A stretch of DNA of 64,000 bases from an uncultured Chloroflexia bacterium. GTDB taxonomy: Bacteria > Chloroflexota > Limnocylindria > Limnocylindrales > CSP1-4. Made by a program: the position numbers. The stretch lies in contig CAWHDR010000001.1 in NCBI GenBank assembly GCA_963828165.1, positions 2,592,001-2,656,000 of the forward strand, given 5' to 3'. This document shows, piece by piece, positions 28,401 to 31,400 of this stretch. Positions within the stretch are counted from its first letter, which is position 1, and each line of letters opens with the position of its first letter.

Positions 28401-31400
28401 TCAGAAAGACCTTGTTCACGGTCCGATCTCCTTCCCGGTCGGCCGGAATGGTCCGGTACCGACCTGCGTACGGACGGCGGGTCCTGATGCGGCGGGATGG
28501 GGTCGCCGGCCCCGGCGGACGGGCCCGGCGGAGGGTCGCGTTCGGCGGTACGGCGTTCGGCGGGGCGTTCGTTTCGGCGGGGCCGGCAATCACCGGCGGG
28601 CACCACGGACCCTAGCAGCGACCGCTTAGTCGGCGCATACCACCGACTTCACTGGGCCTCACCACCGATGACAGCGCTCGCGCGCGCGACCTATCACCCG
28701 CGGTGTCGCTTTCAGCGGGTGGCCGTCTCGGAACGGTCCGGGCGTGGGTCGACGGGCGCGGGCAGGGACGTGACCGACCGCTGCTTGTTCGTTGCGGACC
28801 GGCGCCGCGGCGATCCGGGCTCCGACAGGCCCTCGGTGATGCCGAGCGCGCCATCGGGCGCCATCGTCTGCGACTCGGTCGTGTCCGAGACCGCCTCGAG
28901 CGCGCCGGACGGAGCCTTGCCCCCGACCTCGTCCGATCGCCGGCGCCGGCGGGCCTGACGCACGGGCAGGGGGTCCGGGACCGTGCTCGCCTGGCCGGCG
29001 TGGGCGTCGCTGGCCGCGATCATCGCCTGGACGGCCGGATCGGGCGCCGGCGCCTCGTTGCTGTACAGGTCGCAGAAGGACTCGACGAGCTCGGGGTCGA
29101 ATTGCGTTCCCGCGTGGCGCCGCAGCTCGGCGATCGCGGCCACGTGCGACATCGCACGCTTGTATGGCCGGTCGGTGGTCATGGCGTCGTAGGCATCCGC
29201 GATGGCCACGATCCGGGCACCCAGGGGGATCTCGTTGGCGCGCAAGCCGAACGGGTATCCATGTCCGGCATAGCGCTCGTGGTGGTGGAGGATGATCGGC
29301 ACCGCGTCTTTCAGCGCGGAGGCATGCTCCAGGATCACCTGGCCGACGCGCGGGTGCTGGACCACGGTTCGCCACTCGGCAGAGGTCAGCGCCGTCGACT
29401 TCTCGAGGATCTCCTTCGGCACGGCGACCTTGCCGACGTCGTGCAGGAGGGCGGCGATCCGCAACCGATCGATGTCGGCGTCCGGCAGCTGGAGTTGCCT
29501 CGCCATCGACACGACGATCGTCGCGATGACCGGCGAGGGCTGGCCGCGATAGTGGGGGAGCGGCAGCAGCACGGACGTGAGGGCGTTTGTCGCGGCGTCG
29601 CGAGCCAGTTGGCCGACTTCGAGCGCCCGGGCCCGGCCGGCCGCCGAGATGGGAGCGCGGGGAACCCGGTTGTCGTCATCGGGCTCGGCGAAGATGTAGG
29701 TCTGGTTCCGGCCGAGCGACTTGGCCGAGTACATCGCCGCGTCGGCGTCGCGGATGAGGGTTTCCATGCGGACCTTGTTCCCGACGCCACCGGCGATGCC
29801 GATCGAGATGGTGACCGAGATGACCTGGCCACCCTCGACCTGGTAGCGCTGGCGCTGGACGAGCGTCCGCAATTTCTCCGCGAGGACGGCCCCTTCCTCG
29901 ACGTCGGTCTCGGTCAGGATCAGCATGAATTCCTCGCCGCCGTATCGACCGATCATGTCGGTCCCGCGGAGGTTCTCGGACAGCGTCTGGGCCACGCCGC
30001 GCAGCACCACGTCACCGACGCTGTGGCCATACGTGTCGTTGACGGCCTTGAAGTGATCGATATCGACGAAGGCGACCGACAGCGGGCGCTCGTAGCGTGT
30101 CGCGCGCACGACCTCGGAGAACAGCTCGGCCAGGAGCGCCTGCCGATTCGAAACCCCGGTAAGCCGGTCGTAGGTCGCCCGATCGTGCGTGTCCGCCAGG
30201 GCGCCCGAGATGTCGTTCACGGCGTCGGCGAGACGGCCCTCGAGACCGATGGCATGCTGGGGAACCTGGATGGTGTAGTCGCCCCCGGCGATGTCCTCCG
30301 CAGCCTTGACCAGGCGCGAGAATCGGTACCGGAAGTGCGCCCCCACCACGAGGGCGGTCAGCGAGACGCCGATGGCGCCGGCCGCGATCGCGGCAAGCGC
30401 CGACCGGACGCCCTCATCGATCCAGGAGATCAGGGCATCGGGCACGAACAACGTCAGGGCCCCGATCGCGACCGGAGCCGCGAGCGCCAGGACCCCGATC
30501 AGGCGCATCACGTCCCCAAGGCTACCGGTGGACACCCCTTCGACGGTCTCGCCGGAGGTACCACCGCCCCCCGCCATAGGTACCACCAATGTGGAAAGGT
30601 CGACGTCGGCCCGACCCGTTCGGCGGCCGGTCTGCAGGGGAAGCCGACTGCTATACTCCGGCCGTCCTCGACCGCAGCGGGGCTCCCCGCGAACCAGGAG
30701 GTCAAGCGATCGCGCGAGAAGGGCGCTTCGGCCGTCCCGTGAGGCGTCCAAGCGACCACGGACCGATGCACCGTCGCTCAGTCGTCGGGGCAAGACGGGA
30801 GAGGTCTATCCGGGTCCCAGGGCACGTGCCCGGGGGCTTTTTTGTTGGCCGCGCGCCATGCTCGACCAGCTCATCGTCGCCGGCCTCCGCCGGTCGCTCA
30901 CGCAGGAACCCTCGGGCCGATGGCTCGCGGAGCGTCGCCTCGGACCTCCGGGGGGTCGCGCTCGCTCCCTTGCTCAGCCAGCGCCTTGATCTGGCCGGCC
31001 TGGCGCGCGGATTCTCGGTACAGAGCTGATGCCGGCTACCGTGATCGTCGGGCTCCAGTGGGGCGACGAGGGCAAGGGCAAGACGACGGATTTTCTCGCC
31101 GAGCAGACGGCCATGGTCGTGCGCTACCAGGGCGGCGACAACGCGGGCCACACCGTCGTCCGCGGCGACGAGGTCTTCAAGCTCCAGCTGACGCCGTCGG
31201 GTGTGCTCTACCCGCACATCACCTCGGTCATCGGCAACGGGGTGGTGGTCAACCCCGTGACCCTCATCGCCGAGTTCGACATGCTGACCGCCCGGGGCAT
31301 CTCCACGGACCGCGTCCGGGTCAGTCGCAGCGCCCACGTCATCATGCCGTACCACGTGGCGCTGGACCAGGGGAACGAGTCGCGGCTCGGGGGCGCGAAG

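Follow-up and report, generated by a model that had tools for sequence, protein, structure and literature searches.

The DNA considered here is a stretch of 64,000 nt, hereafter the window, from the genome of an uncultured Chloroflexia bacterium (CSP1-4; assembly GCA_963828165.1, contig CAWHDR010000001.1, positions 2,592,001-2,656,000 of the forward strand), in which a leader RNA precedes the genes of de novo purine synthesis. The leader, a GC-rich RNA of about 185 nt, lies between TGCTATACT (30649-30657) and a terminator hairpin followed by T6 (30812-30843), and a spacer of 177 nt separates the terminator from the purA ATG (31029). purA is the first gene of an operon that continues with purD, purB, purC, purL, purF, purM, and a purN-purH fusion. 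A preliminary description of this DNA, made from the window sequence, had proposed that the leader is a ligand-sensing riboswitch or attenuator of a divergent or undescribed class. Judged from comparison with relatives, the leader is a real element, composed of a conserved promoter, a leader, and a covarying terminator upstream of the de novo purine operon. We propose, with a probability of roughly 0.55, that it is a protein-dependent, PyrR-type attenuator fused to a translated frame, in which PyrR would control the initiation of the frame, and translating ribosomes would mask the terminator and reinitiate at purA. The features of the locus, all on the plus strand, are the following.

30649..30657, plus strand: extended -10 promoter TGC-TATACT; TGCTATACT is invariant in 30/30 aligned relatives
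30666..30701, plus strand: 5' domain, with P1 formed by CCUC (30666-30669) and GAGG (30698-30701)
30707..30715, plus strand: S1, CGAUCGCGC, containing an in-frame AUC (30709-30711) 7 nt past AGGAGG
30722..30757, plus strand: P3, candidate PyrR-type binding hairpin of 13 pairs, with 95.9% of cells paired
30739..31029, plus strand: leader reading frame (upstream open reading frame), 96 codons from the GUG at 30739, with the AUC at 30709 as an alternative start
30772..30787, plus strand: hairpin H4, variable and dispensable, with 4/6 pairs changed on both sides
30796..30811, plus strand: near-invariant segment CGGGAG...GUCUAUCC
30812..30843, plus strand: intrinsic terminator, stem 30812-30823 with 30828-30837, loop ACGU, T6 at 30838-30843
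30850..31026, plus strand: spacer from the terminator to purA, consisting of an in-frame copy of a dispersed short repeat
31029..32336, plus strand: purA, first gene of the purine operon (Pfam Adenylsucc_synt, 553.6 bits)

The case for a real element rests on the comparison with relatives, since the folding energy of the 199-nt stretch is no better than that of shuffled sequence (-82.9 versus a shuffle mean of -88.2 kcal/mol, z = +1.09) and a simple consensus scan calls neither a promoter nor a terminator at the leader, a result that the comparative evidence supersedes. Sequence conservation starts abruptly at the -10 box, and the DNA upstream of it is unconserved. The TATACT box of the preliminary description is present at 30652-30657, as part of the invariant TGCTATACT; no TANNNT was found further upstream in the window, and transcription would start near G30664, about 7 nt 3' of TGCTATACT. 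An RNA-library contig of a relative (run X20, record 23; window positions 30644-30729) reaches 65 nt upstream of the -10 box, which is unexpected if the start follows TATACT and could reflect DNA carry-over or a divergent transcript. purA lies 3' of the element in 29/30 loci (the contig of the thirtieth ends first) and in 30/30 loci of a second set, also where the GGDEF-HD neighbor on its other side is absent, which agrees with the earlier claim that a leader with a terminator heads the whole purine operon. In roughly half of the aligned-relative loci, the gap from the end of the match to the purA start is shorter than about 60 nt and leaves no room for a separate purA promoter. Taken together, the constant purA neighborhood, the short gaps, and the abrupt onset of conservation indicate that the element is a cis-acting leader of purA and not a separate gene.

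The distribution of the element is narrow. BLASTN located it in 34/36 other genomes of the genus and in 0/24 genomes of a small-genome sister family; family-wide it is present in 91/201 genomes, a tally that is the only one to include the unpublished genomes G140 and G196. A covariance model, R1, built from 55 leader sequences, recovers exactly one copy in the own genome (the next match scores 18 bits, E = 0.8) and matches 38/58 genomes of the family and 0/42 of the sister family. At the class level, R1 matches 24/35 genomes of the own family and 0/5, 0/39, 0/40, and 0/1 genomes of the others, and it overlooks divergent copies, given that one genus scored 0/9 yet carries the element. By these sequence searches the element is single-copy and confined to one family. 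Among 80 distant purA loci (PurA identity of at most 58%), a loop-like hairpin was seen upstream in one, which we judged to be chance. None of the sequencing runs searched contains more than 0.23 of the sampled words, and no habitat can be assigned.

In the alignments, the helices that find support are P1, P3, H4, and the terminator, with no sign of a multi-helix aptamer core. Jointly, P1, P3, and H4 pair in 93.3% of cells and include nine pairs changed on both sides, with a covariation score that 0/500 shuffles reach. P1 alone pairs in 91.1% of cells, with 2/4 pairs changed on both sides; the hairpin inside it (about 30677-30690) varies in length, and its 3' strand is included in a near-invariant, Shine-Dalgarno-like AGGAGG (30696-30701). 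H4 is deleted in two loci as an in-frame loss of 24 nt. The terminator, already described as a GC stem with T6, is borne out: in 30 sequences, 6/10 pairs of its stem are changed on both sides and 87.8% of cells pair, its covariation values are reached by 0/500 shuffles, and a T-run follows the stem in 30/30 aligned relatives. The conservation and covariation that the preliminary description proposed to look for in relatives are found in these four helices, and covariation supports no multi-helix aptamer core. The long-range pairing of CCGTC-CTCGAC with GTCGGG...GACGG that it had drawn can indeed be drawn, but it pairs in 65.3% of cells (54 relatives) versus 93% for the supported helices.

Other pairings were considered as well. 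A three-way-junction helix predicted by RNAalifold (AUCGCGC/GCGCGA) was set aside, as 77.6% of its cells pair with no excess over shuffles, and the RNAalifold helix CUCC/GGAG was rejected on account of its 5' strand, which falls within the -10 box and ahead of the putative transcription start; a mutual-information scan was dropped because clade effects dominate it. The CGGGA of the conserved 3' segment has two complementary sites, UCCCG in the loop region and UCCC at the terminator foot. A pseudoknot between the loop and CGGGA is possible: 93.3% of cells pair, and the pairing is invariant and never covaries. S1, in which divergent genera have AUU or GUU instead of AUC, is able to pair with 30723-30730 (S2), an arrangement that excludes the lower stem of P3. 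S1 and S2 pair in 96.3% of cells, where slid controls reach at most 48%, and 0/500 shuffles match this percentage, the covariation score, or the number of cells with changes on both sides. No excess over the 500 shuffles is seen in the two measures based on counting pairs or pair types, and the five cells with changes on both sides all stem from one clade. The mean energies are -15.0 kcal/mol for the full hairpin versus -12.1 kcal/mol for the alternative S1:S2 pairing.

The most conserved piece of the leader is the top of P3, CGUC[CCGUGA]GGCG at 30733-30746, with its hexaloop at 30737-30742 and a GUG at 30739-30741. Across 68 loci the loop follows C-N-G-N-G-A, in which positions 1, 3, 5, and 6 are fixed and positions 2 and 4 vary. 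CCGUGA is found in most loci, the other variants being CGGUGA, CCGAGA, CCGCGA, CAGUGA, and CAGAGA, and the four exceptions are CAGUAU, CCUUGA, CCGAGC, and one 3-nt deletion; GTG occupies loop positions 3-5 in 58/68 loci. According to the available part of PMC7430163, the consensus of the PyrR binding loop is ARUCCAGAGAGGYU, and its terminal loop and the top of its upper stem are crucial. The pattern of fixed and variable positions in the leader fits this consensus, for which reason we read the core as a PyrR recognition motif. One genus (L102, G095:C112) retains promoter, terminator, and leader frame, but its loop is CCCGAUGA, which breaks the PyrR consensus and gives an in-frame AUG in place of GUG; the frame there ends 13 nt inside purA. 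The purine-rich internal bulge below the upper stem, which the available part of PMC7430163 gives, citing Bonner et al. 2001, as a feature of PyrR sites, is not present in P3, whose sole interruptions are a 1-nt bulge and a 1x1 internal loop. The carA and pyrR hairpins of the family are likewise devoid of it, and this criterion may not be applicable in the lineage.

The search of Rfam proposed in the preliminary description returned no family at gathering score anywhere in the window. In the 3.3-Mb genome, the only match of the PyrR family RF00515, a model that covers the binding loop, the linker, and the terminator, at E <= 10 falls at 30721-30846, that is, on P3 and the terminator. In this alignment GUCC.G.GAGGC is matched, with GUC[CCGUGA]GGC in the window against the model core AGUCCaGaGAGGCU. 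The earlier statement that no known hallmark could be found is therefore true only in part, given this sub-threshold match of 23.5 bits. One weak RF00515 match among the relatives overlaps the pyrR leader of its genome. A cmscan of 16 loci (58 kb) taken together gave no PyrR match under an E-value limit too strict for weak matches, and genome-wide regular expressions for the loop matched too many coding sequences to serve as a regulon count.

The genome encodes one PyrR (G000:C1:638002-638577, minus strand; NF003549, 248.9 bits; E = 1.8e-67 to Thermus PyrR 1ufr), and no paralogue was found among its eight phosphoribosyltransferase (PRT)-domain matches, the other proteins with this domain being Hpt, Apt, PyrE, Prs, PurF, ComF, and Upp. 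Hairpins of the same type occur at three further operons. At pyrR, tandem hairpins with loops CCGUGA, CCGAGA, or CUGUGA stand directly before the Shine-Dalgarno sequence. At carA, two hairpins of PyrR type (L092:7954-8110; G000:C1:19954-20110, minus strand) abut the Shine-Dalgarno sequence of a 32-codon frame, whose TGA stop overlaps the probable GTG start of carA (GTGA), the same stop-start coupling as at purA; both hairpins keep C-N-G-N-G-A and are highly conserved in 12 aligned leaders. The tandem hairpins of pyrR and carA are conserved across genera, and the layout of these two leaders suggests a PyrR-type protein that occludes a start site. Upstream of argC (TIGR01850, 379 bits), tandem hairpins with loops CCGAGA and CCGUGA (L106:215-330; G000:C1:388915-389030) lie 3' of a TGTATCGT promoter box (TGTATAGT in most relatives), and in ten aligned leaders from ten genomes their stems covary and their loops keep C-N-G-N-G-A. 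They would represent a site of PyrR type in front of an arginine operon.

The second line of evidence is the leader reading frame, whose TGA stop (31027-31029) overlaps the purA ATG. A stop overlaps the purA start in 59/68 distinct loci, as UGAUG, UAAUG, or, with GUG starts, UAGUG, and in 57 of these 59 the loop codon (positions 3-5) is in frame with it, even though the distance from loop to stop ranges over 103-298 nt with 29 different in-frame lengths. The first in-frame stop falls between -4 and +13 of the purA start in 65/68 loci (56 at -2, four at -4, one at -3, and four at +13), compared with 0/68 and 2/68 for the other frames; the three exceptional loci comprise one with Ns, one without a stop in range, and one with an early stop. 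From the loop to the modeled 3' end of the leader, just before the terminator, the distance is 79, 76, 82, or 55 nt, and 67/69 are in one frame. Upstream of the hairpin, the frame is not preserved: start-to-loop lengths split 31/20/18 among frames, with 1-nt indels in the linker after AGGAGG. The sequence of the leader peptide is not conserved. A Shine-Dalgarno core precedes purA in only 24/68 loci; it is present in four loci that have no stop at, or immediately 5' of, the purA start. The terminator itself is located inside the frame, and the constraint on the frame points to ribosomes translating from the hairpin region, across the terminator, as far as the start of purA. The most likely start codon is the GUG of the loop; the alternative is the AUC 7 nt past AGGAGG, which has ideal spacing and is non-canonical, and across relatives AUC, AUU, or GUU is located 6-7 nt past AGGAGG. 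Two RNA-library contigs of relatives span the leader and the terminator and one continues into purA, which is weak evidence, as contigs do not prove a single transcript and RNA libraries may contain DNA.

The surroundings of the leader add several observations. The repeat in the spacer has 16 further whole or partial matches in the own genome (78-96% identical over 35-136 nt), and a related insert occupies the spacer site in about half of the relatives, always in the leader frame, and is absent in the other half. On the minus strand, a divergent gene encoding GGDEF and HD domains (HD-GYP-like, HD_5; 28712-30577) shares the intergenic region with the leader; it is kept as a neighbor in many genera, not in all, and is probably unrelated to the leader. 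At the far end of the operon, the purN-purH fusion (42112-44341) is apparently broken: Formyl_trans_N, MGS, and AICARFT positions 1-94 end at 43455, and a separate frame at 43517-44341 holds AICARFT positions 226-311, which reflects either a frameshift or an assembly error.

In the mechanism that we propose, transcription would begin about 7 nt past TGCTATACT and the nascent RNA would fold the P3 hairpin, the top of which, CGUC[CCGUGA]GGCG, would be recognized by PyrR, a uracil-phosphoribosyltransferase homologue. The leader frame would initiate at the hairpin, most likely at the loop GUG or else at the AUC past AGGAGG, pass the intrinsic terminator, and come to its stop at the start codon of purA. 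During translation of the frame, a ribosome trailing the polymerase would prevent the terminator hairpin from forming and would reinitiate at purA; when PyrR occupies the hairpin, initiation would be blocked, the terminator would form, and the pur operon would be off. We infer PyrR as the binder, the start codon, the masking of the terminator by the ribosome, and the direction of control. On this last point, the competition between S1:S2 and P3 fits either repression, in which S1:S2 loosens P3 and leaves the GUG free until PyrR binds, or activation, with the AUC buried until P3 is locked by PyrR; the divergent genera, in which a long P3 starts 2 nt past the codon at the AUC site, argue for repression.

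It is important to note that several observations weigh against this reading. The RF00515 score (23.5 bits, E = 0.8 per genome) is far under the gathering score of 54, RF00515 at E <= 10 also rings in 10/14 control genomes, and at the same limit it recovers the purA leader in 0/5 relatives. There is no Shine-Dalgarno sequence near the loop GUG, which is missing in 10/68 loci, and several genera have GUU in place of the alternative AUC start. The model does not account for the conserved segments CGAUCGCGC and CGGGAG..GUCUAUCC. No conserved antiterminator was found by constrained RNAalifold or by averaged pair probabilities, where the best partner for the 5' strand of the terminator is GGGA:UCCC, with a mean probability of 0.14; the classical anti-antiterminator scheme of Bacillus is consequently not reproduced. 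Finally, in Bacillus, UMP and UTP promote RNA binding by PyrR and GMP and GTP oppose it, according to the available part of PMC7430163. If the effectors were Bacillus-like, repressing a purine operon would make poor physiological sense, and activation would make better sense.

This last argument leads to the first rival explanation, namely that PyrR acts as an activator: its binding would lock P3 and free S1 with its AUC start, so that translation of the frame masks the terminator and purA is turned on. With Bacillus-like effectors, purine synthesis would go up at high uridine nucleotides and off at high guanine nucleotides, which is the effector logic of the available part of PMC7430163; the 96.3% pairing of S1:S2, which shares a strand with P3 in folds close in energy, and the near-invariant AGGAGG 6-7 nt from an in-frame AUC or AUU also speak for it. 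Nevertheless, AUC is a non-canonical start and is GUU in at least nine divergent loci; the GUU genera lose the S1:S2 complementarity, and their long P3, 2 nt past the codon, should block initiation; and the five S1:S2 cells changed on both sides all belong to a single clade. To our knowledge, moreover, all PyrR sites described are repressive. We regard activation as a tentative alternative, and hold in the same doubtful light the broader proposal of which it would be part, that PyrR balances purine and pyrimidine (and arginine) synthesis, with a regulon that spread from pyrR and carAB to argC and the pur operon and whose effect at purA is positive through release of the frame start.

The remaining rivals dispense with PyrR. 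It is unlikely, in our opinion, that another RNA-binding regulator of nucleotide and arginine operons acts on the C-N-G-N-G-A hairpins, or that the leader is a protein-free attenuator coupling ribosome and polymerase, as is reportedly the case for E. coli pyrBI, even if a frame through the terminator could act alone. The loop matches the PyrR consensus at each position, PyrR is single-copy, and the motif sits where a PyrR operator is expected, at pyrR itself and at carA; what favors another regulator is that the motif also precedes argC and purA, outside the pyrimidine metabolism of the 2013 survey discussed below. The undescribed metabolite riboswitch of the preliminary description, binding PRPP, a purine, or an intermediate and resembling a PyrR loop by coincidence, would account for a conserved, structured leader with a terminator before a biosynthetic operon, for the lack of an Rfam family at threshold, and for the invariant single-stranded segments left unexplained. 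Against it, only simple hairpins find support in the leader, its closing helix and three-way-junction helix pair in 65% and 78% of cells, the latter with no excess over shuffles, H4 is dispensable, the 3' half is under reading-frame constraint, and the fold is no better in energy than shuffled sequence. In addition, the same loop precedes pyrR, carA, and argC, which have no single metabolite in common. With a PyrR-type loop as its core, a frame-constrained 3' half, and no covarying aptamer core, the leader does not agree with that interpretation, which we consider very improbable. Least credible of all, and to be retained only as a marginal option, is an independent small RNA (6S-like or a PyrR sponge) with its own promoter and terminator that merely adjoins purA. 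A strong promoter-like box and an efficient-looking terminator do delimit an RNA of about 180 nt, but in many relatives the match ends as little as 16-40 nt before the purA start, no promoter-like box stood out where these gaps were inspected, and the frame extends beyond the terminator as far as the start of purA. Within the window, neither 6S RNA nor any other Rfam family attains its gathering score, and purA always follows the element, including in loci whose other neighbor is different.

If the PyrR-type attenuator is correct, operators of this type before a complete purine operon and before argC would constitute a direct regulatory link between two nucleotide pathways. The case also carries a caution, since a conserved, structured leader without an Rfam match need not be a new riboswitch. 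PyrR is known as a regulator of pyrimidine operons. A survey from 2013, covering RNA regulons of 255 genomes, presents its motif as one 'controlling the pyrimidine metabolism'; the supplementary text of the survey, in a possibly incomplete version, contains 'purA' zero times. Literature searches at the level of titles and abstracts yielded nothing on PyrR control of purine genes, and PyrR-type sites before purine or arginine operons did not turn up in them, which is why we rate the leader as a novel version of a known principle.

Compared with known systems, the leader shares with the purine riboswitches (guanine/adenine RF00167, ZTP RF01750, and the PRPP and ppGpp variants of ykkC) its position before purine genes and a terminator-type platform. 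However, RF00167, RF01750, and ykkC/PRPP gave no match at E <= 10 on 30500-31100 or 30655-30860, and the purA leader shows no support for an aptamer-like junction. The likeness to the PyrR site and pyr attenuator of B. subtilis (RF00515) comprises the C-N-G-N-G-A hexaloop, the UC...GG top, the linker, and the intrinsic terminator, together with a PyrR homologue encoded in the genome. The purA leader is not a scoring member of RF00515, and it differs in standing before purA instead of a pyr gene, in scoring 23.5 versus 54 bits, in having no antiterminator that we could find and no purine-rich bulge of UAA type, and in the location of its terminator inside a translated frame. The pyr leader of Mycobacterium smegmatis is said to exert PyrR-dependent translational repression, as in other high-GC Gram-positives, with a PyrR hairpin beside or over the translation start; the pyrR and carA leaders described above have the same layout, whereas the candidate start of the purA leader is placed within the loop or 5' of the hairpin, and an intrinsic terminator is present in addition. 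In E. coli pyrBI, attenuation is reportedly coupled to a leader peptide, a closely following ribosome preventing termination, and for the pyr operon of Thermus ZO5 a model with PyrR plus a leader peptide is said to have been proposed. Both resemble the purA leader in a leader frame that reads through the attenuator, but the frame described here runs up to the structural gene and stops on its start codon, and the target is a purine operon. The proposed layout would be unusual in placing a start codon in a protein-binding loop, a frame through the terminator, and a stop on the structural-gene start, a compact combination of protein-mediated, ribosome-mediated, and coupling control.

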